Source: a virus (Duplodnaviria; Caudoviricetes). From it: DNA of 26,086 nt. Shown in pieces: positions 4,519 to 23,519 of the stretch. Both the position numbers and the translations under genes were made by a program. The stretch covers positions 1 through 26,086 of IMG/VR virus record IMGVR_UViG_3300037721_000072. One strand, 5' to 3'. The notes below the pieces were generated by a model. It made no database searches and was not told the DNA's origin. It was given only the letters and a program-made list of their open reading frames with translations. Within the stretch, counting starts at the first letter, position 1, and every line of letters begins with the position of its first letter.

Positions 4519-4839
4519 TCAGAACAGCTTCACACCGCGGAGAATCAACAGCGTGGCGGCTGCAATGGCGGCGAGGCCCAGCACCAGGATGACCACCGCG
4601 CGCCCGGTCGGGGTGAGTCCGGCGAGCGCGCCTAACGCGACCTTCGCCTTAGGCGGCGCGTCGGACGGGATTTTCACCTGCGAGTCCTCTTCCTCGTCCG
4701 TGTAGCTGTGGAGCTGCTGGCGGGTGATACCGGCGTCCTGCTCTAGCTGTCTGACCCGTCGTTCGAGGTCAGCGACGTGTTTTTCCCACGTCTCAGGTAG
4801 ACGCTGGCCCGGAATGCCTGGGGCGTGAGGCGGCGTCAC
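4519..4839 (-). CDS. Membrane protein of the lysis cassette (holin-like candidate)
   Basis: Short coiled coil plus C-terminal hydrophobic helix AVVILVLGLAAIAAATLLIL; coupled to the upstream gene. Confidence 0.6.
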   Translation of the reverse strand: MTPPHAPGIPGQRLPETWEKHVADLERRVRQLEQDAGITRQQLHSYTDEEEDSQVKIPSDAPPKAKVALGALAGLTPTGRAVVILVLGLAAIAAATLLILRGVKLF

Positions 4840-5069
4840 GGAGCTACCCTAGCCAGTACCGCAAGCGCGGCTGCTACAATGCTCACGAGCGCAGGGAGCC
4901 AGATGTGCTGCTCGAGTCGAGTGACGCGCCTCTCGGTCGCTTGAGCTGTGTTCAGGAACTGGAGCTGCCTTTCGCTGATGCTGTGGACGATGTCGCGGAT
5001 GTCGTTGAGGTCGGAGCGAAGCAATGGGCGCTCAATGGGGGTCGTTTCTTCGTATTGTTCCATGCTCAC
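4836..5069 (-). CDS. Holin-like membrane protein (coiled coil plus single C-terminal TM, XhlA-like architecture)
   Basis: ERRVTRLEQ followed by IWLPALVSIVAAALAVLA; directly downstream of the endolysin. Confidence 0.6.
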   Translation of the reverse strand: MSMEQYEETTPIERPLLRSDLNDIRDIVHSISERQLQFLNTAQATERRVTRLEQHIWLPALVSIVAAALAVLARVAP

Positions 5070-5575
5070 TCCTCGTCCTGAATGCCAGGGACGCTGTACG
5101 GTTGATTGCGGACGAATCCGGCTTCCGGGGGCGCTTGAGCGAGCAGCAGGGGCTCGATGCTGTAGAAGACGATGCCCTGGCGTGGTCGAACCTGTTGGCG
5201 CACGCCGGGCTGATTCCCGTCGACCGAATGCACCTTGCCATCGTGCTCGTAGGAGTAGAGCAGGTGGTGTTGGAAGGGTTGCGGTAGGTAACCGATGTCA
5301 CCGCGTGACGGGGTTCGCGTTTGCTTGAGCCCGGCCGGACCGAGGAAGCCGATCCCGTCCTGCCAGTAGATGTCCTGGGCGATGCCGGCTTGCTTGAGGC
5401 ACCACAGGGCAAACCCGCCGCACCAGTCGCGCGTCTTGGCGTACGTCTTGGCCTGAGCGTCGCTCCACTCGGGAGGAAGGACCGAGCGCCAGTACTCATA
5501 GACGCGCTGGGAGCCCTTGCGTTGCGGGCCTATCTCGGCCTCGGCTATCTCGATGATGCGAGCCCTTGTCGTCAC
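5066..5575 (-). CDS. Endolysin, CHAP (NlpC/P60-fold) peptidoglycan hydrolase
   Basis: IIEIAEAEIG...DWCGGFALWC (catalytic Cys)...PSRGDI...QHHLL (His)...VHSVDGN. Confidence 0.85.
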   Translation of the reverse strand: MTTRARIIEIAEAEIGPQRKGSQRVYEYWRSVLPPEWSDAQAKTYAKTRDWCGGFALWCLKQAGIAQDIYWQDGIGFLGPAGLKQTRTPSRGDIGYLPQPFQHHLLYSYEHDGKVHSVDGNQPGVRQQVRPRQGIVFYSIEPLLLAQAPPEAGFVRNQPYSVPGIQDEE

Positions 5576-8018: not shown

Positions 8019-8386
8019 CAGACGCTCGGGGCGCGCTCGGGGCTGAGAGCCAGCGAGACAATCCAGGGGCTTTGAGCGGAACCAGTATTCACCCACTCGA
8101 CCTTGAAGTCGTCCATGTGTTCGATCAAAGCGTCGTACAGGTCCTCCTCTGTCGTGGACGCAGCGGAGAACGTGTCCACCAGGACCCAGTTCGCCCCTCG
8201 GTCGTTGGACTTGTACAGGTTCACCGTGCCGGCGGATGAGTGCCTGACACCCAGAACGAAGCGTCTGTACCCGATGCCAGGGGCCATTCGCTTGCCAGGA
8301 AACGCCAAAACGCTCGAGAACAACACGTAAGTGTTGGAATCAGCCCCAGGCGTCGACCCCGTGTAGGTAATTACCGCTGTGTTCAT
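8018..8386 (-). CDS. Small beta-rich virion protein with Asp-box-like motif (SNDRGANW)
   Basis: Coupled at both ends; beta-strand pattern; located among structural genes. Confidence 0.7.
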   Translation of the reverse strand: MNTAVITYTGSTPGADSNTYVLFSSVLAFPGKRMAPGIGYRRFVLGVRHSSAGTVNLYKSNDRGANWVLVDTFSAASTTEEDLYDALIEHMDDFKVEWVNTGSAQSPWIVSLALSPERAPSV

Positions 8387-11382
8387 TTGTTCATGTCCAT
8401 GAGGTTTTTGAGGACCGCCGCCGCGAACTGCGCCTCTTCCTCGGAGATAGTATCACGAGGCTTCTCGTCGCGCTTTGTCGCAATCGACCCAGCCGGACGA
8501 GCTGCTTGTCCGCCCCTTACGTGAAGGGCGCGCCAAGACGGGACGGCCTGCTCTAGGAATCGGTCGATGACATCCGACGCTTCCTTGGTGGCCTCCATCT
8601 TAGGCAACCCACCGGAGACGCTGTTGAGGGTGGGCACGGCTCGGAGGGTGTTGTTCATCTTCACGTAAGTCCCTCCGCCGCTGCCGATACCGGAGATTGC
8701 CCTCCCTAGGTATTGCTTCCAGTTTTGGGCGTCACGGAGGCGCTGGATATTACGGATAGCCTCCTCATTGTCGAGACCGGACCTCCTGGCAAGTCCAAGA
8801 ATCTTCTCGCTAACGATTGCATTCTTGGGGTCAGCGGTCCCCAGGATGCGACCTTTGAAACCATCGTAATCTTCCGCCCGGATTCTAACCTGCGGCTCGG
8901 TGCCTTCAGCCATGGCTGACACCTCGTCGCCAGTGGGCCCACGGGTACCATCGGTGAGCTTGATGCGGAGGATTCCGTCCTTATCGCGGTAGGAATCGGT
9001 GACCTTGAACGAGCGCCCCGTGGGTATGGCGACTTCATCGAAGGTGTTAAGACCAGGGACGTTTTCCAGGTCCAATCCCGATGAACCCTCGATGCTAAAG
9101 AGCACAGGCTCTCCCTTGGAGCCTTTCTTGGAAAAAGCGGCTGCGTGGTTCTCGTCTTTTGACGTGGACCACAGATGATCGCTTTTGGTTTTCCCTGAAG
9201 CGATGAGTCGTTGGATTTCCTCCGGTGGCATCCGCGCACCGCGGAACACCGTCCCCTGGTACCCAAGACCTTTGTCGACTGCCTCGGCGATGGCCTTGTT
9301 CGCGGCGTACTGCGCCTGTGTAGCGCTAGCAGTGCGGTTCGTGTCCTTTGGTCTAGAAAAGTCACTGCGTTCGACATCGGAAGCCACTGCACGCTCCGTG
9401 TTGAAATACTCCTGTACCTTGGGGAGGCTGGGGTGAGATTCGAAGAACTTCACAGCCTCGGATGGCCCAGGCCCACCAATGCGCACAGGCGCTGGCTCTA
9501 GCCGAGGCGGGAGCCCCATTTGTCGGTTGTCGAACTCTTGCAGGTCTTGCTCTCGGCTTTGACGTGCCTTCATCCCAGCGTAATCGCTGACGGGTTGCGC
9601 GTTGCCTTCAGTGTCGCGAATAGCGTAGGCGTCCACCCGAGTAGGCTCGTTGAACTGAAGCTCGTCTCGCCCCTTTCGCAGCATCGCCGAGACCTTGTTG
9701 ATGTCAGGGTCTGGTTTCTTGGCATCTTGATTGGCCCAAGAGTCGACCTCCGAGATAACGTCGTCCAATTCCTTGGCCGTGAGGTTACCCTTCTGGCGAA
9801 TCTTCCTGGCGTACCTCTGCAAAGCAGTCCGCTTAGCCTTCGCCTGGGGCGTCATCCCCGGCATGTCGTTGGCGAACTGGATTATCTCTTCGGCCAATGG
9901 GCTGGTGTCTACGGTCGCAGAACCGAGGCGCTCCCTGGCGATGGCGGTCTCTCCCTTTGCCCTGACAGAGGCCGACTCTTGCTCCTTGAGCCTCTGGCTC
10001 AATAGCTTCGGCGCGACTGCGTCAGCTATGCGGCTGTCAGCCGTAGTTCGAGCTGCGGCCGCTTCTCCGGCGAATCTGTCAAGGTCCGGAGGAAGAACCG
10101 GCTCACCGAGCGGCCCCATCTTTACTCCCGAAGCCTGTCCGTGAAGGAGGATATCCTTCGGAGTCCCTCCAGCTATGCCCCTGGCGCCTAGCTTCGCCAG
10201 GCCGCCAAGCGCTTCGCCCCCAGCCCCGAATGCGGCACCATACCCAGCGCCGCGGAGGGCAGCCCCTGGTAATCCCTGAGTTGTTTCGTAAAGCCGCTGC
10301 GCTGCCTCTTCTGCGGTGTCGCCAGCGTCCAAAGCATCAGCGGTGAACCTGGCTATCTCCCGCAGAGAGGCGTCCGTTGCGCCGGTAGCGGCAGCCGACG
10401 TGATCCCCTTGACGGCTCCAGAGATGCCCTTGGAGCCTAGACCCGCTTTGCCCAAAGCCTTGGCGGCGGTCGTGGCGATTCTTGACGGTAACCCCGTGGG
10501 AGTCAGCGTCCCGACAATTTCGCCACCCATTGCAGCGTTGGGATTCCTGGAAACGCTACGCCCCTCCTCCTCGTTCTCTGTGGGGAGAGATAGACCGCCT
10601 GTCATGCCTCGGACGGCGCCAGTGGCGGCAGCTACGGATGGGTCCAGTGCCTTCGCTTGAAACTTGTCAACGTCGCCCATCTCCTTGGTATGGTCAACCC
10701 GGGAGATGGCGTAGCCGTTCTTCATAGCGTCGGCCAGGGCATGTTTCCATGAGGCATCCTGGAAAGCTCTGAACGTAGTGGAATCCTCAAGTTCCTTGTC
10801 AGGCAATCTCGACAAGTCCTCAACGAGGTTGAATTCCTTCTTGAGCCTGCGGGCGATGTTACCGTCGGCCATTGCTGACCGGAACTCGGCCACCGATGGC
10901 TCGTAGAAGTAATGCCTCTGGAGCGCAGTAGGCATGAACGCCAACGGGTTGGCCAACGACAGCTTCGGCTTCGGTGGCACGTAGTCCGGAGGGTCGTTGA
11001 ATATCTTCAGCTTCGAAGCATTCGGGAGCGAGTCGTCCTTGGTCGCCTGGCGCACCTGCTCAATTACCTGGGTACGCTTGGGGTCTACGGCCAGGTTCTG
11101 AATAACGTTAGGCTGTGAGAGATCTATGCTATAGCCGGCCTTAGTGGCCTGGTCGCTAATTCGAGCCGAATCGTCAGCCTCTGTCTGCTGAACGGACGAC
11201 TCGTTTTGGAGCTTATCGAATGCGGTTCCTGGCCCGATACCCTCAACTAGGGTTGCCTTTTGCGGCATGGCGAGAGATTCCCACCGACGCATGGCGTTAG
11301 TGAGCTTCTTTGGGTCTTTAGCCTGGCCACTTTGAAGCAGCCCCTGAGCTTGGTCATACTGTTCCTGGGATGTGATGGGCAT
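8383..11382 (-). CDS. Large internal virion/ejection protein with embedded ADP-ribosyltransferase (R-S-E) domain
   Basis: 999 aa with a G/A-rich helical mid-region typical of podovirus ejection proteins. ART motifs YQGTVFRG, WSTSKD...A.AF, VLFSI and FDEVAIPTGRSFKV at about 8950-9265. Confidence 0.8.
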   Translation of the reverse strand: MPITSQEQYDQAQGLLQSGQAKDPKKLTNAMRRWESLAMPQKATLVEGIGPGTAFDKLQNESSVQQTEADDSARISDQATKAGYSIDLSQPNVIQNLAVDPKRTQVIEQVRQATKDDSLPNASKLKIFNDPPDYVPPKPKLSLANPLAFMPTALQRHYFYEPSVAEFRSAMADGNIARRLKKEFNLVEDLSRLPDKELEDSTTFRAFQDASWKHALADAMKNGYAISRVDHTKEMGDVDKFQAKALDPSVAAATGAVRGMTGGLSLPTENEEEGRSVSRNPNAAMGGEIVGTLTPTGLPSRIATTAAKALGKAGLGSKGISGAVKGITSAAATGATDASLREIARFTADALDAGDTAEEAAQRLYETTQGLPGAALRGAGYGAAFGAGGEALGGLAKLGARGIAGGTPKDILLHGQASGVKMGPLGEPVLPPDLDRFAGEAAAARTTADSRIADAVAPKLLSQRLKEQESASVRAKGETAIARERLGSATVDTSPLAEEIIQFANDMPGMTPQAKAKRTALQRYARKIRQKGNLTAKELDDVISEVDSWANQDAKKPDPDINKVSAMLRKGRDELQFNEPTRVDAYAIRDTEGNAQPVSDYAGMKARQSREQDLQEFDNRQMGLPPRLEPAPVRIGGPGPSEAVKFFESHPSLPKVQEYFNTERAVASDVERSDFSRPKDTNRTASATQAQYAANKAIAEAVDKGLGYQGTVFRGARMPPEEIQRLIASGKTKSDHLWSTSKDENHAAAFSKKGSKGEPVLFSIEGSSGLDLENVPGLNTFDEVAIPTGRSFKVTDSYRDKDGILRIKLTDGTRGPTGDEVSAMAEGTEPQVRIRAEDYDGFKGRILGTADPKNAIVSEKILGLARRSGLDNEEAIRNIQRLRDAQNWKQYLGRAISGIGSGGGTYVKMNNTLRAVPTLNSVSGGLPKMEATKEASDVIDRFLEQAVPSWRALHVRGGQAARPAGSIATKRDEKPRDTISEEEAQFAAAVLKNLMDMNK

Positions 11383-12947
11383 CAGTAAAGGTCTTCTTCT
11401 CGGGACTCGACCGGAGTCGAGTCGTCAGACCTGCGGATGGTCTTCCCTAGAGCCGCCTTACGTCGCTGTAAGATAGGCGCATCCACCTTGCCCTCGTTCT
11501 GGGCCGCGTACGCCTCCTCCAGGTCAGCCGCCACCTCTTCCCGGGTAGCTGCGTTGATGCGACGCTGCTCCGCAATGACCATCTTGATCTTGTTGACGAA
11601 GCTCGGGTCAAGAGGGCCACCAGTCCACCTAGAGACCGTGTTCCTCGCGGAGGCAATGACACCGTCGAGCTGATCATAGCGCGCTCGCTCGCGCTCACTT
11701 ACCGTGGCGCCAGACCTCGACTGTACCAGCACGTCGACAGCGTTGCGTTGGAGCGCCGGGTCCGAAGAAGAGGCCAAAGCTTCAGCTTGAGCTAGCAACC
11801 GGTCGCTCTCATTGAGCTTACCTACAGCACCTCGAGCCTCTGTGATGTAGAGCTTGATTGACTCTGCGCGGTCCTCTTTCGGCCCCAGAGCCTGAAACTT
11901 CCCTGGGGTACCCACTCCGCCGCCCCACTTCGGCCTAGTGCCGAGCTTCGTGCGCTCAAGGTTGATAACCCGGTTAGCTTCGCCGTTAAGGTAGTCCATG
12001 CCCAACTTGATGGCATCCTTCGGCGCTACGCCATCGACCTCGATGAGCTTCGAGGCCATCGCCTGGGCGCGCTTAGCCGCTGAACCGATCTCTGGGTTCT
12101 CGTGCTGAAGAAACGGTTCGAATACGCTAGCAACCATCGGTGTCCACCTACCAGACGGGCCGGACGATTCGTAGAGCGTCTTCCCTCCCTTGGACACGAC
12201 AGTGGGCAGTAGCTGGCTAGAAAGCCGCCGCGGTGCTGGCGCGGTTTCCGCCGTTTGTTCCTCTCCAATCTTGAGAGGAGTCGGGTCTTCCTGGTCCAGA
12301 TCGACAACGCCACCCTCAGCAGCCGCCGCTTGCTTGACCTCAGGAGAATCCACGTCGCCCATATCCACAGGCGCCGTATCTTCGCTTTGCTCTGGGAATT
12401 GCTTCTTGAGGTAGGCTTTCATCTCCGGCGTGGTGCCTGGTGCACCGCTGGCCGTTGACTCCATCCTTTCCGGTAACCCGCCAGACTCATCGATGAGCTT
12501 TTGCTCAAATTCCTCCTGTGAAAGCTCAGTCTCTTGAGCCTGCTGACCAGTGAAAGCTTGCAAGTCTGGTCGACTAACGAGCGGACGTTCGCCAGTGAAC
12601 GCGCGCAGGTCTGGAGCTTGCTGCTTGGAGCCCACGTCCATCCCGAAGCGCTTCAGCATCTGCGCTGCTCGAGAAAGGCGCACCGGGTCTCCCTGGTCCT
12701 CGGCGTCCTGGTATTCAGCCAGGAGTGCCTCAACCTGCTTTTGGTCGTCCTGTGAGAACTTCCTGTCCTGGTACGCCTGCTCCATAGAGAGACGCTTGTC
12801 CGCTCGCGTGTTCTGCTGCTCGTTCTCCAGCTTCCGCTGCTTCATCTCCTTGTTCCCCTGAACAACACGCAGCAAATCCTGCGACGTTGCTAGGCCCTCG
12901 AGAGGGCGGTTGTTCATCGGCTGGAGGAATCCGGAGAATGGGTTCAT
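11382..12947 (-). CDS. Internal virion/ejection protein (helical, acidic linker)
   Basis: 521 aa, positioned between ejection-type genes; TGATG coupling to the 999-aa gene. Confidence 0.65.
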   Translation of the reverse strand: MNPFSGFLQPMNNRPLEGLATSQDLLRVVQGNKEMKQRKLENEQQNTRADKRLSMEQAYQDRKFSQDDQKQVEALLAEYQDAEDQGDPVRLSRAAQMLKRFGMDVGSKQQAPDLRAFTGERPLVSRPDLQAFTGQQAQETELSQEEFEQKLIDESGGLPERMESTASGAPGTTPEMKAYLKKQFPEQSEDTAPVDMGDVDSPEVKQAAAAEGGVVDLDQEDPTPLKIGEEQTAETAPAPRRLSSQLLPTVVSKGGKTLYESSGPSGRWTPMVASVFEPFLQHENPEIGSAAKRAQAMASKLIEVDGVAPKDAIKLGMDYLNGEANRVINLERTKLGTRPKWGGGVGTPGKFQALGPKEDRAESIKLYITEARGAVGKLNESDRLLAQAEALASSSDPALQRNAVDVLVQSRSGATVSERERARYDQLDGVIASARNTVSRWTGGPLDPSFVNKIKMVIAEQRRINAATREEVAADLEEAYAAQNEGKVDAPILQRRKAALGKTIRRSDDSTPVESREEDLY

Positions 12948-12949
12948 GG

Positions 12950-13909
12950 TTAGCCGTAAAAGGAGTTGTAGAGACTGGCAGCCGTATTCGCGTATCCGAG
13001 CGTGTCGTTCGCGTTCGTGCGCTCGTTGTTCGCTGCCTGGTTACCAGCAGCTACGCCGCCAGAAGAGGCCTGCTCCATCATGGCAGCGTCGTTGTCCAAG
13101 GCCGGAAGAATGGTGGACTTGTACAGGTCGGCCATCCTGTCACCCATCGACATCTGGTTGTTGAAGTAATCCTGCCCCCGAGTCCGTTGTGCGCCTTGAG
13201 CAGCAAGGGCTGCGTCCATCCCGGCGTTGGTCCGACTCAGCCCAAGCTGAGAAGCGTCCAGGCCGAGTTGCGAAAGCAGCTGTGTCCACTGGCGCTCATT
13301 GTTGGCGTTGTTCAGGGAGTTGGTGTCCGCTTGACCTGCGAGTTGGCCGCCTAAGCTTTGCCATCCTCGCTGTTCCCCCAGGCGCTGGAGGTTGTAGTCG
13401 GCTTCTTTCAGGGCTTGCTGTCCGTCCAGGTCAGTGAACGCCCTGGCAGTCTGGTCGTTGGCGGCGGATGACCCGTACGCGCCCCTGGCCGCCATGGCCT
13501 GATTGATAGACTCGGCGGCCCGGTTCTTGGCGTTGTCGAAGTAGGAACCAAACCCAGGCTCCGAAGAGATACTCGGCATCGCGCCTTGAAACTGGTTGTT
13601 CCAGGCTCCAGAGTTATCTGTCGTTGCCGGCCTGGCTCCTGGGTTCGAGTATTTCCCAACCAAGCCCTGGTTGTTGACCTCGCCAAATGACGGCGCCTGC
13701 CAGACGTTGGAATTGGCGTTGTAGTACGACTCGCCGGCCCCTGGTCCGGATGTGTTGACGCTGGACAGGTGGCTCTGGGCTTGTCCTGGCTGGATCCCGG
13801 GGCCCTGGTTGCCCCAGGATGGTCCGCCGCTCTTCTGGTTTAGCCAACTAGGCGTCGCTGGTTGGTTAGGGGCTGACCAAGTTGAACCGTCACGGATATC
13901 GTTAGGCAT
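12950..13909 (-). CDS. DNA-transfer/ejection protein (N/Q/G/A-rich)
   Basis: INQAMAARGAYGSSAA resembles the AARG...S motif of podovirus DNA-transfer proteins; low-complexity composition. Confidence 0.72.
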   Translation of the reverse strand: MPNDIRDGSTWSAPNQPATPSWLNQKSGGPSWGNQGPGIQPGQAQSHLSSVNTSGPGAGESYYNANSNVWQAPSFGEVNNQGLVGKYSNPGARPATTDNSGAWNNQFQGAMPSISSEPGFGSYFDNAKNRAAESINQAMAARGAYGSSAANDQTARAFTDLDGQQALKEADYNLQRLGEQRGWQSLGGQLAGQADTNSLNNANNERQWTQLLSQLGLDASQLGLSRTNAGMDAALAAQGAQRTRGQDYFNNQMSMGDRMADLYKSTILPALDNDAAMMEQASSGGVAAGNQAANNERTNANDTLGYANTAASLYNSFYG

Positions 13910-14814: not shown

Positions 14815-15173
14815 CAGCGCCTCCCGAAAATACCCAGCGGGTCTATTGGGTTAAAACCCATCATGCCTTGGGGCCGCGCCTGCTGTGGCTGAATGGGCTG
14901 CTGAGGCAAATCGTGACCCATCATCCTCTGCGGCGCTCTCGTGAGACCTCCGACCCCAGGAGCCTTGGCGTTCGGGTCACCCCAGAGCGTTTCCAGAGCG
15001 TTGTTTCCTCCCTGGAAAGCTGATGTCATGTTGTTGAGCGCATTTAGCCGCGCTTGCATTGCCTCAGGCCGGTACGCTTGGAGGTCCTCTCGGGACGCCT
15101 TGAGGGCCTGCATCTGTTGCTGCTGGCCGGCCGATTCGCCGCCGCCCAGGATGCCGCTAATTAGTCCGCCCAT
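14814..15173 (-). CDS. Small Gln/Gly-rich putative ejection protein (P22 gp7-like position)
   Basis: ATG 15173 in a TAATG overlap with the gp10-like stop; MGGLISGILGGG. Confidence 0.72.
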   Translation of the reverse strand: MGGLISGILGGGESAGQQQQMQALKASREDLQAYRPEAMQARLNALNNMTSAFQGGNNALETLWGDPNAKAPGVGGLTRAPQRMMGHDLPQQPIQPQQARPQGMMGFNPIDPLGIFGRR

Positions 15174-16603
15174 TATTGCTCCAATACTTCGAAGTCTTCG
15201 CTTGCTGAGACCAGGATCAACTCTTCCGTTCCTGTGAACTCGAAACGCCACTGTCTACGGCGGTAGGTTCCAAGTGACCTGAATTCTAGCACAGGATGTG
15301 TATCTCCGGACCTACCCAAGTCGATCGGGATCGAAGGTTCCCACGGGCCCGGCTGGTCTCGGTATGAGAAAAAAGCCTGGGGCCCGGTGCCGCCGTTCAC
15401 AGTCCCACGACGCAGGGCGAAACGGACGCACTGACAGTGTTTTTTCTGGTCAGTTCCACGTGAAACATAGCCCGTCTCGACGTAAGCCTTGATAGGCGTT
15501 CCCAGGTCAGTCAGTGCGTCCGTGGTTAGCTCCCCGATGAAGCCTTCCGTTGTCCCAACAACGTTGACGTTCGTGTCCTGGCGGAGGTGGTGACTGAGTA
15601 CCTCGAACGGCGCGAACCCGGTGGTGCTAGCTACCCAACCTGACCACTGGCCCCAGCCTGAGCCGGTTTGGTAGACGAACGTCCGGCCGTCTGTGGGGAA
15701 TGTCCACACCAGACAGTCGACATTTCCCGTCATGACCCGGTAGCCGTAGCAATCGGAGTAGGTGTCCATCTCGTCCAAGCTCTTGGCTATGGGGTCGGAG
15801 ATGACCTTGATGCTTCGACCGTCGCTCACGACGAATCGCTGAAACTGGTCCAACCAGGCGAACGACTGGTCAGTCTTGATGACCGAATACGGAGCCCCGC
15901 AGCCGTACTCCCTCGTCGCCTCCGGCAGGTAGACTGCTGAGGCGTCGGGTCCGTAGACCTGGAGCGTGCCTTGGCCAAAGACGAAAACATTGTTGGTGTT
16001 TTCGTGAACGGCCACGACGTTGTCTGGGCGGGCTTCGGCGGTGATGTACCCCGCTGGGGGAGCAAATGACCAATTCTCGGCTCCGGAATAGTCCGAGTCA
16101 CCGATGAACGTGGAAGAATACCTGACAGCGGTCTTGTTGAGCAGAACATCGTTGGCAAGCAGCCTGGAGGCGTGAGCGATGACGTGCGACGCCATCGGCG
16201 GGTTTCCCCCAAGCGTCTCAATGACTCGAGAGGAGCGGATGTATTTGAGCATCTCGCGCCCGCCAGTGATCACCACCAGAGCCTCCGTCTGAGCGAATAT
16301 CGGGCGTAGCTCTCCGGGAACTGCCGCCGTGAGTGCACGAGCTAAGCCTCCCTGAACTTCGTAGACTACTCGTCCTGGTCCGCCTGAGACGGCCAATAGC
16401 CGCCCGTCATCTGTGGCAAATAACCCTTCAATACCTGCCGAGTTCACGACGGCCTCCGGTGCTGCGGGATACGTCCTGATTCCAGGCCTCCGTGTCACGG
16501 ACCCGCTGGGGTCCACAACGACATTCATCGAGACCACGCCGGCCCCAGCCAGAGGCTCTACGCCTGAGGCTTGCTGATTGGTGAACGGTATGGGTTGAGC
16601 CAT
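15173..16603 (-). CDS. Tail hub/packaged-DNA stabilization protein (P22 gp10-like)
   Basis: N-terminal N...RRPG, AEARPDNVVAV, VFVFG..T.QVY, GCGAPYSV and C-terminal FRSLGTYRRRQWRF match the gp10-like pattern; start 16603 by TAATG overlap. Confidence 0.85.
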   Translation of the reverse strand: MAQPIPFTNQQASGVEPLAGAGVVSMNVVVDPSGSVTRRPGIRTYPAAPEAVVNSAGIEGLFATDDGRLLAVSGGPGRVVYEVQGGLARALTAAVPGELRPIFAQTEALVVITGGREMLKYIRSSRVIETLGGNPPMASHVIAHASRLLANDVLLNKTAVRYSSTFIGDSDYSGAENWSFAPPAGYITAEARPDNVVAVHENTNNVFVFGQGTLQVYGPDASAVYLPEATREYGCGAPYSVIKTDQSFAWLDQFQRFVVSDGRSIKVISDPIAKSLDEMDTYSDCYGYRVMTGNVDCLVWTFPTDGRTFVYQTGSGWGQWSGWVASTTGFAPFEVLSHHLRQDTNVNVVGTTEGFIGELTTDALTDLGTPIKAYVETGYVSRGTDQKKHCQCVRFALRRGTVNGGTGPQAFFSYRDQPGPWEPSIPIDLGRSGDTHPVLEFRSLGTYRRRQWRFEFTGTEELILVSASEDFEVLEQ

Positions 16604-18234
16604 TAACCTACGCGGACGTCCACGATATGCCAACGGTAGGCGTTGTCAGTTGCCAAGTCCGACAAGACGCAGGTTAGGTAAATCGACTGGCCGTTGTTTA
16701 CAGCCGTCGCCCCTCCAACGAGCGAGGTGTAGGTGCCAGCGAAGGTGACGGACGCCCAGTTCCCGCCGCTGTTGTTGAGGATGTATATCCCTAGCTGTTG
16801 AGAAGGGAACAACATCGCAGGCATCGTTACCGTGGGAGCCGTACCGGTTGACACTATCTCGGCCAGGGAAACGCAGTCGAATACCGTGTATGCCGCCACC
16901 GCCCCAGACTCGCGGCTTCTGTCGCTTGTCTCCAAAAACGACCCCTTGGCCAAGGGGACCGTGGCAGAGTTGCCTGAGTAACGCTTGATGCAGCCAGGGA
17001 AAAACGTGCCATTGACACATATCTTCCCGCCGCCCAGGAAAATAATACCGACATTGAACGAGTTTGCCGTGGATACAAAGTGGCATTCGCCGATGGCTAC
17101 ATTCGCGAGCGTCGAGACTACGCGAACGCCGGACAAGTCAGTAGGCGGTACGGACACTGACGACCCATCGAAGATGCACCCGAAAATCGCGTAGTAAGAA
17201 GGCAGTAGCCCCGTGACGGAGTCTAGTCGAATCAGTTCCTGGTTGTACCCAGCCGCGCCAGAGAAAAACCGGCAATCCGTCATCGTCACATCCGCGGCGA
17301 GGTAGGCCGCATACCCTGCGTATGCAGTGAACCGGCAACTGTCGAGCCTAAGCTTGCCGCCATTGGTAAACGTCCTGATGAGATTCCCGGCACAATTGGA
17401 GCTAACTCCGAACACGCAGCCGACGAACCTCACGTTCACAGCGACGGTGGAGTAAAACTGCTCACCTGTGTTCGACTGAGAGGCGTCGAAAGAGACGCCA
17501 TGGATTAAGATAGGCGCGCTCTGGGCCGTGCCAGAGGTTAACGTGAGAATCCTGGCGTTCGAAACGGAGCTGGTTTTGATGGTGACCTGGTTAGCCCCGA
17601 TGCCGATGAGGCTCACCCGGTGGTCCCACTCGATGGCCGTAGAAATCAGGTAGGTGCCCGCAGGCAGGAACACCACGCCGCCGCCAGCCGCTACCGCAGC
17701 GGCCAGCGCCGCCTGGATAGCAGCTTGGTCGTTTGCGACCCCATCGCCAACGCCGCCGTAGATTGGGCTCTTTACGTTGTAAACCAGGCCGGTCAACCCG
17801 CCGAGTGCATTTGTCAACGTGGTGGCCGCACCCCCAACAGAGACCTTCCAGTCCGGAGCCCCGGCATTGGTCACCCATAGATCCAATACAGCCTGGAGAG
17901 TGGTAGGCTCGTTGACCGCAGCGACGCCGGAGACGTAGTCATTGCCAGTGAACGACGGGGAGATGACCTCCACGTTCCTCGATGCATATCCGTCGGTCCA
18001 GGACCGGATTACCGTACCGTCTGGAGACTTGGCCACAACATCGACGAGCTGGTTTACGTAAACCTCCACCGCGCCATAGGCGTCCAAGTCAATGTCATCG
18101 CCGGACGAATCAGAGGTGGACGCTTCAAAGTCGAAATAAACGGTGGCCCGAGTAGAGGTACCGCGGATGTAAACCTCGGCCCAGCCATTGGCCGCTGCGG
18201 CGATGCCAGCGTTAAGCGTGCTGATTAAATTCAT
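16603..18234 (-). CDS. Tailspike with particle-binding N-domain and pectate-lyase-3-type beta-helix
   Basis: VY..GT.T.ATVY.D...IDLDAYG anchor; YNVKSPIYGGVGDGVANDQAAIQAA...GGVVFLPAGTYLI. Confidence 0.88.
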   Translation of the reverse strand: MNLISTLNAGIAAAANGWAEVYIRGTSTRATVYFDFEASTSDSSGDDIDLDAYGAVEVYVNQLVDVVAKSPDGTVIRSWTDGYASRNVEVISPSFTGNDYVSGVAAVNEPTTLQAVLDLWVTNAGAPDWKVSVGGAATTLTNALGGLTGLVYNVKSPIYGGVGDGVANDQAAIQAALAAAVAAGGGVVFLPAGTYLISTAIEWDHRVSLIGIGANQVTIKTSSVSNARILTLTSGTAQSAPILIHGVSFDASQSNTGEQFYSTVAVNVRFVGCVFGVSSNCAGNLIRTFTNGGKLRLDSCRFTAYAGYAAYLAADVTMTDCRFFSGAAGYNQELIRLDSVTGLLPSYYAIFGCIFDGSSVSVPPTDLSGVRVVSTLANVAIGECHFVSTANSFNVGIIFLGGGKICVNGTFFPGCIKRYSGNSATVPLAKGSFLETSDRSRESGAVAAYTVFDCVSLAEIVSTGTAPTVTMPAMLFPSQQLGIYILNNSGGNWASVTFAGTYTSLVGGATAVNNGQSIYLTCVLSDLATDNAYRWHIVDVRVG

Positions 18235-18953
18235 CTACGGCTCCATCCAGTGCGGTGAGCGACAACGAAACGAGTGGGAGCCTTCTGGGCTGAGTAACTC
18301 TTGCACTTGTCGAGGTGCTTCTCGGCTATCTGCTCGAAGTAGCCTACCCGGCCTGGATTTAGCGAGTAGCTCGAGGCCAGGAGCGCGCCCAGCTTGTAGG
18401 TGATGTGGAGCGTCCAATACCTCTCCACATCAAGCGTCTTGGCTCCGTCGTTGGAGTCTGCCGCAAGTCGGTGGACCTGCATTCGGAGCGTACCCAGGTC
18501 GGCCGCCGTTGGAGTGGGCCAGACTCGCAACTCGACGGGGGAAGCGGCGCGGTGGGAGTAGTACTGGAGCGGGCGCCCGGTCATGTCTTTGGCCGTCTGG
18601 AGCTGCCAATCCTCGCGTGAGATTGGGATAAGCGGGATCTCCCCTCCGGCGTGGTTGATGTCCACGGTCCCTGGCGGGATGTACATTATCTGACCAACCA
18701 CATCGATGACGTCAGCGTTCAGCACATAGGCCGACTGTCCCGCCACGAGTGCCAGGGTCTCGAACGCCACGGCGCGCGCCCGGAGGCCATCGGCTTCCAG
18801 GTCGTCGAGTATCATCTCCAGGAAGTCTTTAGCCAGGGCTTGCTTGTCGAACGACAACGATTGCGACTCGTTGACCACGCCGATTAGCTGATGGGCACGC
18901 TGACAAATCTTAGCGATGTCCAGCTCGCGGGTGCGGTTGGCGTTGATGGTCAT
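18231..18953 (-). CDS. Head-tail adaptor/tail tubular protein (P22 gp4-like)
   Basis: I..RA...IG...L..ILDDL, L.AGQSAY.L..D, GRP..Y, VWPTP and ITYKLG..LA; start MTINAN at 18953 by ATGA overlap. Confidence 0.82.
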   Translation of the reverse strand: MTINANRTRELDIAKICQRAHQLIGVVNESQSLSFDKQALAKDFLEMILDDLEADGLRARAVAFETLALVAGQSAYVLNADVIDVVGQIMYIPPGTVDINHAGGEIPLIPISREDWQLQTAKDMTGRPLQYYSHRAASPVELRVWPTPTAADLGTLRMQVHRLAADSNDGAKTLDVERYWTLHITYKLGALLASSYSLNPGRVGYFEQIAEKHLDKCKSYSAQKAPTRFVVAHRTGWSRR

Positions 18954-21262
18954 CCGTTGATGCTCCGACTGACCTCGACCCAGGACGAGCCACGCCATTC
19001 AAGTGTTATCGAATCATTCGTGGTGCCCAGCGTGCAGTCGCCTGCAATTTGCAGGTTCCCGGTTCCGTCCTTCACGACCACGTCACGTGCGCTGTTCGCT
19101 ATGCGAATACCGACACGGTCCCCTTCCCTGCCGGAGTAGCTGATGGTGGCCAGGTTATCGGTGGCCGCGCCGCCTTCCGTGTCAACTTGCAAGAGTCTGA
19201 GCCCATGCGGGCATGTGACAGCGTCACTGGCGATGGTGAGACTCTGGCGCTGCACGTCGAGGTTCCGAATGGTCGGCTCACTCGTTGTCCCTACGGAGGT
19301 GGCGAAGGTCCTAAAGGTATTCCCCTCGATGTAGTGGAATTGGTTGGCCTGCGCATCAAAAGTGACGCCGGTTCCAACGCTAGTTGGCGCATAGCCGCTA
19401 TTGTTGACCACGTTCAGGTCTTGGCAGCTCCCCGAGCCGGAGCAGTTGATATAGATCCCGTTTCCACCGGTCGCTCCGACTGGTAGCTCCGAGTAGTTGC
19501 CGGTTACGGTACCTCGGATGCAGTCACGGATGCGAATGTGAACCCCGTTCGTGTTCGCCCCAAAAGTCTGATTCCCTTGGCATGTGAGCCCAGTCACATC
19601 CTCCAGGTAGAGCGACTCGTTGGCGGTACCACGGATGATGTTTCCGTTTACGGTGAGCCCGCTTACTGTGGCACCAGCCAGCGTCCGGATGCCATGCGTT
19701 CCACCGTTGATGGTGTTCCCGATAACGGAAGCGTCTTGGAGATTGCCGTTTAGCGAGATGCCGACGCTCGTCGGCGTATCAACCAGATTCCCGTCAATCT
19801 TCAGCCTTCGTAGTGTGAACGCGCCAGTCGTGATGCGGATGCCATGCGCGCCGCAGTCGCTGAAACTGTTCCCCTGGATGACGATGTTTTCACCGTCGGC
19901 CTCCATTGCGTCCAGCCGCAGACCACAGGCATAACCGTAGGTCTTGTTCCCGGAGACAGTGATGTCGTTGCAGTCGTAGAAAATCTGTATTGCATCGTAA
20001 TTGGCCTGGTCTGAGGCTGGGTTAGGTCCATAGACCGCGTTATTGGTCACGGTTGCCTTTTGGGCACGTACCTTGATTCCGCCCCAGTACCCCTGGACCA
20101 CGTTGCTGTCGATGACACAGTTATAGCCAGAGCGATGCATGTCGATGCCGCTCTGCCATGAGCCAAGCACCATGTTCCCAGTGACGGTGATGTTATTGGG
20201 AACGCCGAACCAGTAATCCTGGCCCGTCCCGCCCGTGCTGCCAGTCGTAACGAAATGCCGGCAATTGATGCAAAAGTTATCGTGAATCCGAACGTTCGCC
20301 GTACATCGGTAGACGCCGACGCCGTACTGCGAGCGCTCTTTGATGGAGTCGAACTCGAAGGAGTTACCTCCCACCTCTACCCCGTAACAACTCTCCAATA
20401 TTATTGGTTGGTTTTCTACTGCCACGAAGCGGCAACGGAGAAACACCAAATCTCTGGCCCAGATGGCCCTCAGGCAGATGTCCGACCTCGAGGCCGATGT
20501 CGCATCGTTTACCTCAATCGTGCCCGTGTAGGTAGGCGTCGGTGCTCCAATGGGGTTGATACCCTTACCCTTCACCGTAAGGTCTGACATGCCGCCCGTG
20601 ACAAACGAGATATTCGCTAACTGCACAGTCCCAAGACCAATGTCGTACGGTTCGACTGTCGGCGTCGTGAAATAGACATCGTTCCCGTCTACCCACTGAA
20701 CGCGCAGAAACTCCGCTCGCGTCCCGCCATCGTCGATTACGTAGTTCTCCGTGCTGCGAAGCTGGACAATGTCATTCGGCGCGTAGCCGGCGCCACTGGC
20801 AACAGTGCACATTACCGCTCCGCGTGCCACCGTAGCCGTTACGCTCTGGACATTAGAGCGCCCAGCTCCCTGCATGAGAAACATGCCGGTGCCATAGGAG
20901 TAGTCGGTGCTACCACTGAAGTCCAAGACAGACACATGCATACCTGCCCCCTTCAGGTAGACGCCGTCTGGCCAAGTGATTGGAGCGCCAGAAGAGCCGC
21001 CAGCGAGTGTTATCGGGAACACCCCAGGTGGGATTAGCAGTGTCCCGCCACCTCGAGCCGAGAGTGCTGTCATCGCCGCCTGAAGCGTTGCGGCATTGAT
21101 GACCCCTGATGAGGCAACGGCTAGCCCAGCCTCTCCGCGGACCTCGCCGACTGTGGCCTTACGGGTCACTCCGCCAGAGACGACGGGGACCAAGTCCGAC
21201 GACAAAAGCGCCACGGTTTGCTCTGATAGCTCAGAGATTTTCTGAGGACGTTCTTGAGCCAT
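18950..21262 (-). CDS. Second spike/fibre: right-handed beta-helix (putative depolymerase), 770 aa
   Basis: N-terminal KISEL...DLVPVVSGGVTRKATV anchor motif; GGTLLIPPG; many I.GN.I parallel beta-helix repeats; C-terminal VDTEGGAATDNLATI...WVEVSRS domain. Confidence 0.88.
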   Translation of the reverse strand: MAQERPQKISELSEQTVALLSSDLVPVVSGGVTRKATVGEVRGEAGLAVASSGVINAATLQAAMTALSARGGGTLLIPPGVFPITLAGGSSGAPITWPDGVYLKGAGMHVSVLDFSGSTDYSYGTGMFLMQGAGRSNVQSVTATVARGAVMCTVASGAGYAPNDIVQLRSTENYVIDDGGTRAEFLRVQWVDGNDVYFTTPTVEPYDIGLGTVQLANISFVTGGMSDLTVKGKGINPIGAPTPTYTGTIEVNDATSASRSDICLRAIWARDLVFLRCRFVAVENQPIILESCYGVEVGGNSFEFDSIKERSQYGVGVYRCTANVRIHDNFCINCRHFVTTGSTGGTGQDYWFGVPNNITVTGNMVLGSWQSGIDMHRSGYNCVIDSNVVQGYWGGIKVRAQKATVTNNAVYGPNPASDQANYDAIQIFYDCNDITVSGNKTYGYACGLRLDAMEADGENIVIQGNSFSDCGAHGIRITTGAFTLRRLKIDGNLVDTPTSVGISLNGNLQDASVIGNTINGGTHGIRTLAGATVSGLTVNGNIIRGTANESLYLEDVTGLTCQGNQTFGANTNGVHIRIRDCIRGTVTGNYSELPVGATGGNGIYINCSGSGSCQDLNVVNNSGYAPTSVGTGVTFDAQANQFHYIEGNTFRTFATSVGTTSEPTIRNLDVQRQSLTIASDAVTCPHGLRLLQVDTEGGAATDNLATISYSGREGDRVGIRIANSARDVVVKDGTGNLQIAGDCTLGTTNDSITLEWRGSSWVEVSRSING

Positions 21263-22607: not shown

Positions 22608-23519
22608 TCAGGCGTTGGAGAAGAAGAAGCCGCGGGCGTCCGACCAGCCAGAGGCCCAACGTGCGGACACGCTGTACTTCATGGTCTCGTTGTCGTTCTC
22701 GACCCAGCTGTTGCTCTTGGGCTTACGGCGCCACTTGGACTGGATGCCGTTGTCCACGTCGGTGATGACGCCCCAGTTCGTGGTGGTGTTGTTCCAGTAC
22801 TTCACCGGAACCGGCTTGATATCTAGGTCGTACACCGCGTTGATGGCGGCAAAGTTCCCCGCCTCCGGAGACTTCTCCGAGCCAAGAATCTGCTTCCAGA
22901 CCGCCCATTGCTCGGTCGGGAAGACAACTTTCTTGATGTCGTAGCCCTCGGTGATGCCGTCGTGACCAGGCAGCTTCATGACGAGGCTTCGGACGGTCGC
23001 CAGCGCCAGCGCCGAAGGTGCCATGGGCACCGACAGCGTGTTACTGAACGTTCCGCCACCCGGCATCGTGTGAGCCGCAGAGGCCAGCGGAACACCGTCT
23101 CCGCCCACGTATGAGGTGTTCGTGGCGCGAATCAAGATGCTCGTCATGTCGATGTCGAACGTCTTGTAGATGGCGCGGTCGAGGCGCTTGGCCAGTCGGA
23201 GCGTCTCCGGGTACTTGTTGTCCTCCATCGCCTCATCAGTGACGATGAGCTTCAGCGCGAACTTGCGAGGGATGTAGCGCTTGAGGAACCCTTCACGAAT
23301 GGTCCCGACGGTGATTTCCTCACCCTCGTCGGTCTCGGCCGCAAGGCCAGGCCCGCCCATCTCGAGGTCATCGACGTATGCCTCGTCCATCGAGCCGACC
23401 TTCATCCACTTCTTGCAGACGAGGGCAGACTCGTTCTCGCCGAGCCGGTCATCCACGATGGAGTCCAGCGTCTCCTTGAAGGAGTTGAAAATCGTTGAAC
23501 TAAAGATTGTTCCAGACAT
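22608..23519 (-). CDS. Major capsid protein (HK97 fold, Mu gpT-like family)
   Basis: 303 aa; S.D...D...GPGLA..T.EG..I, GGDGVPLASAAH, KVVFP, YWNNTTTNW and C-terminal RWASGWSDARG; position after scaffold and decoration genes. Confidence 0.88.
   Translation of the reverse strand: MSGTIFSSTIFNSFKETLDSIVDDRLGENESALVCKKWMKVGSMDEAYVDDLEMGGPGLAAETDEGEEITVGTIREGFLKRYIPRKFALKLIVTDEAMEDNKYPETLRLAKRLDRAIYKTFDIDMTSILIRATNTSYVGGDGVPLASAAHTMPGGGTFSNTLSVPMAPSALALATVRSLVMKLPGHDGITEGYDIKKVVFPTEQWAVWKQILGSEKSPEAGNFAAINAVYDLDIKPVPVKYWNNTTTNWGVITDVDNGIQSKWRRKPKSNSWVENDNETMKYSVSARWASGWSDARGFFFSNA

Follow-up and report, generated by a model that had tools for sequence, protein, structure and literature searches.

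A 999-residue protein of the virus record IMGVR_UViG_3300037721_000072 (Duplodnaviria; Caudoviricetes) carries an internal domain with a predicted ADP-ribosyltransferase (ART) fold in which Phe replaces the first Glu of the usual E-x-E motif. The whole record, 26,086 bases long and estimated to be 56% complete, was analysed and is called the window here. In R-S-E ARTs, the textbook switch of specificity lies two residues before the catalytic Glu, at just this position. The replacement marks a clade, which we call [FY]-x-E, and the domain is an optional insert in the 999-residue protein, a likely ejection protein called the carrier here. We prefer, with a probability of roughly 40%, to read it as an ART that is injected, is active and modifies something other than arginine; a nucleotide or nucleic acid is the leading candidate for the acceptor.

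An earlier note on this DNA had recognised VFRG, WSTS and NTFDEVAIP as ART motifs. All three are indeed in the 999-residue open reading frame (ORF), WSTS exactly as reported and VFRG at 9249-9238 instead of 9241-9250. The ART fold proposed there was recovered by structure prediction. An AlphaFold2 model of residues 641-822, built from a 61-row alignment, reached a predicted local distance difference test score (pLDDT) of 94.0 and a predicted template modelling score (pTM) of 0.87, with R714, S739 and E783 on core strands (E68-78, E98-101 and E143-146 of the model). When this model was compared with the PDB by Foldseek, every row among the matches listed was an ART structure, the best being Vis (E 5.3e-9). 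VIA gave a Z score of 14.7 both to Vis (root mean square deviation 3.2, 164 residues aligned) and to 6dre, which a table of PMC8120803 identifies as the Tre1 pair. For the ART domain the ESM Atlas returned 0.96 by features and a template modelling (TM) score of 0.70, and the BFVD matches comprised VIP2-, Alt- and Mod-type (ModA/ModB) ARTs together with head-protein ART fusions. The Pfam family PF01129 (ART) matched residues 640-830 with 22.7 bits (E 7.2e-5) against a cut-off of 22.3, and the whole 999-residue protein with 18.5 bits, below the cut-off. A loose R..STS..E pattern, written after inspection of the sequence, occurred in 1 of 5000 shuffles. Altogether, the model and its structural matches make it almost certain that residues ~641-815 form an R-S-E ART fold with retained R, S, F and E residues. 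The interval given previously, residues 685-811, omits the N-terminal helices at residues 641-684 (9462-9331), in which part of the clade signature lies.

The loop known as ARTT (ADP-ribosylating turn-turn) aligned without gaps to that of ExoT and, through the profile of alignment A2, also to those of Vis (E 9e-26), Tre1, ExoT and HopU1. In this profile alignment F781 takes the place of the first Glu of E-x-E (ARTT position 6) and the catalytic Glu is E783, so that the F-x-E register given in the earlier note was upheld. Position 6 is the acceptor-reading residue (PMC7827354). Position 3, usually aromatic, is Leu or Ser in the clade (residue 778). Two residues of the upstream helix, R664 and S668, stand where Vis, Tre1 and ExoT have a Tyr and an Asn; their assignment to Tyr251 and Asn255 of iota toxin was made by spacing and not from an iota alignment. 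The hallmarks of arginine-specific E-x-E enzymes are missing from the window ART, which has no Glu at position 6, no aromatic at position 3 and no helix Y-x3-N. The Trp at position 3 and the Q-x-E that characterise guanine ARTs (pierisin, scabin/ScARP) are missing as well. Position 6 is aromatic, as is reported for CARP-1, and in the clade R664 is invariant and K752-K753 frequent, but net charge is not raised. The regular expression for mono-ARTs given in an excerpt of PMC7764402 did not match the window protein.

A search of 1.84 billion cluster representatives returned 84 matches to the domain, 29 of which have Phe or Tyr at the F-x-E position; eight of the 84 lie outside the alignment. With close homologues included, the alignment holds 87 rows, of which 40 carry Phe (33) or Tyr (7) and 47 carry Glu (45) or Gln (2). 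On a quick maximum-likelihood tree of 85 rows, from which two gappy rows had been dropped and in which the motif columns were kept, all 39 Phe/Tyr rows fell on one branch beside E-x-E branches, with a Shimodaira-Hasegawa-like approximate likelihood ratio test (SH-aLRT) support of 99. E783, S739 and F750 are invariant in the 40 clade rows, and R714, R664 and N661 in the 39 rows that cover them. Conservation is nearly as strict at G777 (39/40), T780 (39/40), E/Q671 (39/40), N779 (38/40) and S668 (36/40), and is looser in the phosphate-nicotinamide (PN) loop at K753 (32/40) and K752 (30/40). Position 773 is Asp in 38 rows and Asp or Glu in 39, the window itself having Glu, and position 782 is acidic in 24 of 40, so it is not conserved as an acid. 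E783, S739, F750 and R714 are kept across rows down to about 25% identity. Outside the clade, residue 664 is mostly Tyr (20/47) and residue 668 mostly Asn (31/47). Thus, on the aligned sequences, F-x-E marks a clade and not a one-off; the acceptor side appears to have been altered jointly, and the G-x-N-T-[FY]-x-E loop is new.

Most clade members score under the Pfam cut-offs. A search started from the opposite end of the clade gave 14 matches, all of them [FY]-x-E and five with a Mu-type portal domain; in P0048, P0056, P0228, P0230 and P0231 the same domain is joined to the C-terminal part of Mu-type portal proteins. Four other proteins of 1,200-3,000 amino acids (P0042, P0067, P0092 and P0099) each hold three to five ART-like repeats. 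Against 50,697 phage records, tblastn with the ART domain and with an E-x-E relative found nothing, and the hub and capsid proteins of the window match those of cultured phages at 21-30% identity. Motif scans gave genuine hits in three of five viral matches and one of 38 genome matches, the remainder being chance. One relative (L032) is on a 17-kb contig from a bin with the label Myxococcia; all of the 13 kb examined there was phage-like. As to the host, none of 400 further genomes in the sample of that phylum matched, and no confirmation was obtained for any of the 613 candidate stretches taken from species genomes. A literature search that covered few subscription papers, and neither PMC9503650 nor PMC5512222 with their supplements, found no description of the [FY]-x-E clade or motif; with the same coverage, a whole-word search for F-X-E with ADP-ribosyltransferase returned 0 papers.

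The presence of the domain in the carrier is variable. There were 24 full-length carrier matches, one being the window's own protein and one, of 602 amino acids, being left unaligned. Among the 22 aligned, 12 have the ART, nine are without it and one has another insert. Once loci were added, the slot in 28 rows measured 184-186 amino acids (16 rows), 9 amino acids (10 rows), 142 in P0014 and 230 in the distant P0101. A tree of the flanks required four state changes and placed P0014 as sister to the ART-bearing P0009 (support 99), which indicates replacement of one insert by another; gain and loss of the ART are not separated by this tree. Over the 16 rows, mean identity was 60% in the ART and 54-55% in the flanks. 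In the comparison of the ART with that of L003, the proportion of nonsynonymous differences (pN) was 0.175 and that of synonymous differences (pS) 0.784, synonymous divergence (dS) being saturated. The ART domain is therefore under purifying selection, and it is dispensable yet maintained: dispensable because 10 of 27 aligned relatives are without it and one has a different insert.

The other insert, at residues ~636-775 of P0014, is about 140 amino acids long, carries a DGRHR motif and matches P0044 (E 2e-8). It has no Pfam or PDB match; it is possibly ParB/Srx-like, a label that serves as a lead only. [DN]GRHR-type stretches also occur in two E-x-E carriers, P0029 (residue ~591) and P0044 (residue ~508). 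The wider carrier set is tied to E-x-E-ART proteins through regions outside the ART, by weak links. Three ART carriers, P0041, P0046 and P0070, have weak matches to Peptidase_S74, a self-cleaving chaperone (E 4e-4 to 6e-3, below the cut-off); such regions could be a route of cargo release.

The carrier gene is the last of three that follow the tail hub gene and precede the tail-fibre and lysis genes, which is the position of ejection genes such as gp16. This position had been pointed out before, and comparison with annotated phages agrees with it. In PBR31, whose hub matches distantly, the putative internal proteins A (308 amino acids), B (581) and C (557) come in an order identical to that of the window trio, and the corresponding slot of VvAW1 holds a DNA-ejection gene and a DarB-like anti-restriction protein. 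The trio order is also kept in L001, L005, L007/L008 and L032, and the [FY]-x-E ART gene has the same position in the last three of these loci. Cys is absent from all three trio proteins of the window, from 23 of 23 carriers and from the PBR31 trio. A Cys-free composition is typical of ejected proteins. Outside the ART, the three trio genes had no PHROG, Pfam or NCBIfam match. The full-length model of the carrier is mostly helical but weak (pLDDT 62, pTM 0.40), and a fold search with it gave ART-type and unnamed matches at TM scores of 0.14 or less. The nearest named ESM cluster of the carrier is PF26808, Phage_P22_gp16, at 0.86 (32% of its members), which is a lead only. Because of gene order, Cys-free composition and precedent, and not because of homology, we consider that the carrier is probably packaged and ejected.

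A mechanism can be proposed from these elements. The carrier would be packaged late and ejected, and its ART insert would then refold in the cytoplasm; gene order, composition and precedent make this step a likely one. The domain, likely an active mono-ADP-ribosyltransferase, would quite probably cleave nicotinamide adenine dinucleotide (NAD), since E783, R714, S739 and F750 are invariant and selection on it is purifying. With Phe or Tyr in place of the Glu that recognises the guanidinium of Arg, it very probably cannot recognise that group in the customary manner. Iota toxin pairs its Glu378 with the Arg of the target, and its Tyr251 adjoins the acceptor and aids NAD binding (excerpt of PMC3202787). 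The change from acid to aromatic at one of these places and from aromatic to Arg at the other would make Arg a poorer acceptor and an anionic or stacking group a better one. Speculatively, N661, R664, N779, T780 and F/Y781 may form a specific acceptor site in which the aromatic stacks, an amide reads the base and the Arg holds a phosphate or carboxylate. The most likely acceptor would be a nucleobase, nucleotide or phosphate. There are precedents for parts of such a site: CARP-1, reported to have Tyr at ARTT position 6, modifies the N2 of DNA guanine (excerpts of PMC12945103 and PMC11281641), and DarT1 reads guanine via an Asn (excerpt of PMC11281641). By analogy with T4 Alt only, the purpose might be an early disarming of host defence or of host gene expression.

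When the two halves of the acceptor question are taken separately, a nucleotide or nucleic acid is a possible but doubtful choice, and a non-arginine protein residue is a little less probable. The fullest version of the proposal is tentative and rather unlikely to hold as a whole. It says that the clade is an injected ART lineage whose Arg pocket was rewired into a nucleotide reader, by N-T-F in place of aromatic-x-x-E and by the helix Arg; that, as an anti-defence measure, it modifies a nucleic acid of the host or a signalling nucleotide of guanine type during the first minutes of infection; and that phages exchange it at a fixed slot of the ejection protein, gaining or losing it there.

Several observations weigh against an injected ART with a non-arginine acceptor. 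The nearest structures (Vis, Tre1, ExoS) are protein-arginine ARTs. The net charge of the clade averages +1.0 against +1.9 in the E-x-E relatives, so that it is not more basic, and the two clades are not separated by charge; the clefts of CARP-1 and pierisin are electropositive (excerpt of PMC12945103). Iota toxin requires Tyr251 to bind NAD, and its Asn255 is located at the NAD site (excerpt of PMC3202787); as the equivalents of both are changed, the domain may bind NAD more weakly. When they lose the first Glu, C2 and ExoS no longer transfer ADP-ribose but keep their NAD glycohydrolase (NADase) activity, and in iota toxin E378D keeps NADase while E378A loses both activities (excerpt of PMC3202787). 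No gene for an ADP-ribosylhydrolase, macrodomain or NADAR protein was found among the 27 proteins of the window or the 45 ORFs of G002, a 98%-complete relative; a promiscuous DNA modifier would therefore endanger the phage's own DNA. Neither the profile of the 319-residue protein family nor that of the carrier matched the internal proteins of PBR31 and VvAW1 significantly (best E 0.16). A portal remains with the capsid, so that the portal fusions need a release step or act before injection. Finally, the clade rows include near-copies, and the counts given above therefore overstate independence.

The behaviour of C2, ExoS and iota E378D, in which the first Glu is needed for transfer and not for NADase (excerpt of PMC3202787), is also what would be expected if the domain, in place of transferring ADP-ribose, hydrolysed NAD itself or immune signals derived from NAD. 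The retention of E783 in 40 of 40 rows agrees with such an activity. The set of new invariant residues on the acceptor side, however, exceeds what water as acceptor requires; moreover, NAD depletion is a host defence that phages counter (excerpt of PMC9503650), and P22 figures suggest only tens of injected copies (excerpt of PMC8402733), so we regard a pure hydrolase as unlikely. Another alternative concerns the time of action. The enzyme might be active late in the producing cell, or might never reach the cytoplasm of a new host, for instance if it shields virion assembly from packaging-sensing defences. This option has been raised for head-associated ARTs (section 27 of PMC9503650); the portal fusions among the clade matches (5/14) would suit it, and so would the want of homology behind the ejection role. 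It is made distinctly improbable by the agreement of gene order with annotated internal-protein trios, by the Cys-free composition of all 23 carriers and by the DarB-like anti-restriction protein in the VvAW1 slot.

The earlier note had left the choice between a new specificity and a non-catalytic role, and here the first now looks likelier and the second is weakened. A role as binder or decoy, whether for NAD, for ADP-ribose or for an ADP-ribosylated molecule, would account for the change of all three equivalents of iota Tyr251, Asn255 and Glu378 and for the scores of most clade members under the Pfam cut-offs. It fits poorly with the strict retention, over the whole identity range of the clade, of E783, S739, F750 and R714, with conservation in the ART at least equal to that of the carrier; retention of the catalytic Glu would be unexpected in a pure binder, and we give this alternative slightly less credence than late action. 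That the domain still modifies arginine as T4 Alt does, the lost Glu being made good by a different acidic residue, seems more improbable still. Its nearest folds and sister branches are E-x-E enzymes, and the conserved acids D/E773 and E/Q671 might be candidates for the replacement, but both lie off the ARTT reading position, position 782 is acidic in too few rows (24/40), and R664 would put a positive charge at the site of the Arg acceptor, as judged from iota Tyr251. That the domain is a decaying, functionless remnant is scarcely credible: its absence from 10 of 27 relatives, and the other insert in one, make it dispensable, but pN is far under pS, the ART is conserved at least as well as the carrier, and the clade signature is kept over many different carriers. 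An injected ART with a changed acceptor remains our preferred reading.

The genes around the carrier are arranged as capsid, tailspike, adaptor, tailspike-like gene, hub (phrog_578), four small ORFs, the 319-, 521- and 999-residue proteins, and tail and lysis-like genes. The positions of the main features are collected below. The 319-residue protein has 165 unnamed homologues, and 120 of these together contain a single Cys in 39,344 residues. Two tailspike-like beta-helix genes, encoding 543 and 770 amino acids (16603-18234 and 18950-21262, minus strand), stand on either side of the adaptor gene; L001 is without the 770-residue one at the corresponding place. At 4519-5575 (minus strand), a gene for a 169-residue CHAP-like protein (Pfam E 0.0018, below the cut-off) is followed by two small ORFs with hydrophobic C-termini. 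These three genes are likely a lysis cassette, and L001 and L032 have a different lysin-like gene at this place. The public gene call of the carrier (P0001) begins at residue 39 and gives 961 amino acids; homologues favour the upstream ATG at 11382. A 228-codon open +1 frame over the ART domain (9392-8706, minus strand) was rejected as a gene, as four to six stops close it in 4 of 4 relatives and it is likely due to chance. Promoter and terminator counts in the window were at chance level only. In the near-complete relative G002, a helicase gene contains an intein-like insert (L005:628-3210).

Positions of the ART domain, its motifs and the surrounding genes in the window.
Feature	Position	Strand	Evidence or remark
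ART domain, aa ~641-815	8938..9462	-	Pfam, AlphaFold and structural matches; optional insert of ~177 aa
VFRG, aa 712-715; R714 is the NAD-binding Arg of R-S-E	9238..9249	-	R in 39/39 covering clade rows
WSTS, aa 738-741; S739 is the Ser of R-S-E	9160..9171	-	S in 40/40 clade rows
NTFDEVAIP, aa 779-787	9022..9048	-	contains F-x-E
PN-loop F750-x-K752-K753; F750 corresponds to the nicotinamide-stacking Phe	9124..9135	-	aligned to Vis, ExoT
ARTT loop P776-G-L-N-T-F781-D-E783	9034..9057	-	position 3 non-aromatic, position 6 Phe, position 8 catalytic Glu
Helix motif Y659-x-N661-x-x-R664-x3-S668-x-x-E671-R672	9367..9408	-	R664 and S668 replace Tyr and Asn of E-x-E relatives
Carrier, 999 aa, Cys-free, mostly helical	8383..11382	-	largest and last of three genes at the ejection position; holds the ART insert
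521-aa Cys-free protein, second of the likely ejection trio	11382..12947	-	position only, no family match
319-aa Ala/Gly/Asn/Gln-rich protein, first of the likely ejection trio	12950..13909	-	position; composition resembling that of internal protein A of PBR31
Head-closure / tail hub protein (Hc3), fixes the gene order	15173..16633	-	phrog_578, E 2.4e-27
Head-tail adaptor	18231..18998	-	PF24175 SU10_adaptor, E 4.2e-9
Major capsid protein	22608..23519	-	PF25209, E 1.2e-8

The clade has swapped both the specificity switch and the helix that faces it, and with E-x-E sisters and ART-less carriers as controls the rules of acceptor choice become directly testable. It also represents phage ARTs that are overlooked by the standard motif and by most of the Pfam cut-offs. 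The 9-residue linker of a likely ejection protein, which takes inserts of 140-185 residues, would show a site where podoviruses load cargo that acts from time zero. Should a nucleotide or nucleic acid prove to be the acceptor, the domain would add a new chemistry to phage counter-defence; if it is only another protein-modifying ART, a known theme is extended.

Among known systems, T4 Alt and the Alt-VIP2 group of head-packaged ARTs share with the window ART the R-S-E fold, a late structural-gene context and a likely delivery with the DNA. Head contexts account for about 44% of phage ARTs, and Alt/VIP2 ARTs are found fused to MuF or portal proteins (excerpt of PMC9503650). The window ART differs from the T4 Alt family in being an internal insert of a podovirus-type ejection gene, instead of a free internal protein or a C-terminal MuF tail, and in having [FY]-x-E and a changed helix motif, whereas Alt is an E-x-E enzyme that modifies Arg. 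The cultured podovirus Pf-WMP4 of Phormidium offers a second parallel. Its gp32 (phrog_832, 'RNA polymerase ADP-ribosylase') is likewise the largest gene after tail genes and an annotated internal protein, and it has a Pfam ART match at residues 1250-1396 (E 1.1e-9) together with a ParB-like region; RefSeq labels it 'ParB-like partition nuclease' (L050:6061-10440). However, its loop is a canonical E-S-E, and its likeness to the window carrier is seen in the ART alone.

The closest solved folds are those of Vis (Vibrio splendidus), Tre1 (Serratia), ExoS/ExoT and HopU1, with Z scores of 12-15 and a gap-free ARTT register; in Vis the spacing from R to S is also identical. In contrast to the window ART, these are secreted E-x-E enzymes with other acceptor-side residues, and they are only 15-20% identical to it. 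Tre1 modifies Arg174 of FtsZ (PMC7827354). The clam enzyme CARP-1 is an active R-S-E enzyme on DNA guanine N2 with Tyr at ARTT position 6, a likeness of one residue taken from a legend of PMC12945103. CARP-1, pierisin and scabin nevertheless belong to another lineage and none of them was among the fold matches listed; the window ART is without Trp and Q-x-E and has no excess of positive charge. Polyvalent proteins (excerpt of PMC5512222) and the DarB-like gp01 of VvAW1 resemble the carrier as large virion proteins with interchangeable ART and ParB-like domains, and VvAW1 gp01 brings methylase-helicase cargo in the corresponding gene slot. Unlike the carrier, with its one R-S-E cargo in a defined slot, polyvalent proteins combine H-Y-D ARTs with several unrelated enzymatic domains (same excerpt). 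Since head-packaged ARTs, polyvalent proteins and Pf-WMP4 gp32 are known, an ART in an ejection slot is not in itself a new architecture. What is new here is the [FY]-x-E clade with its remodelled acceptor side, together with the swappable slot.

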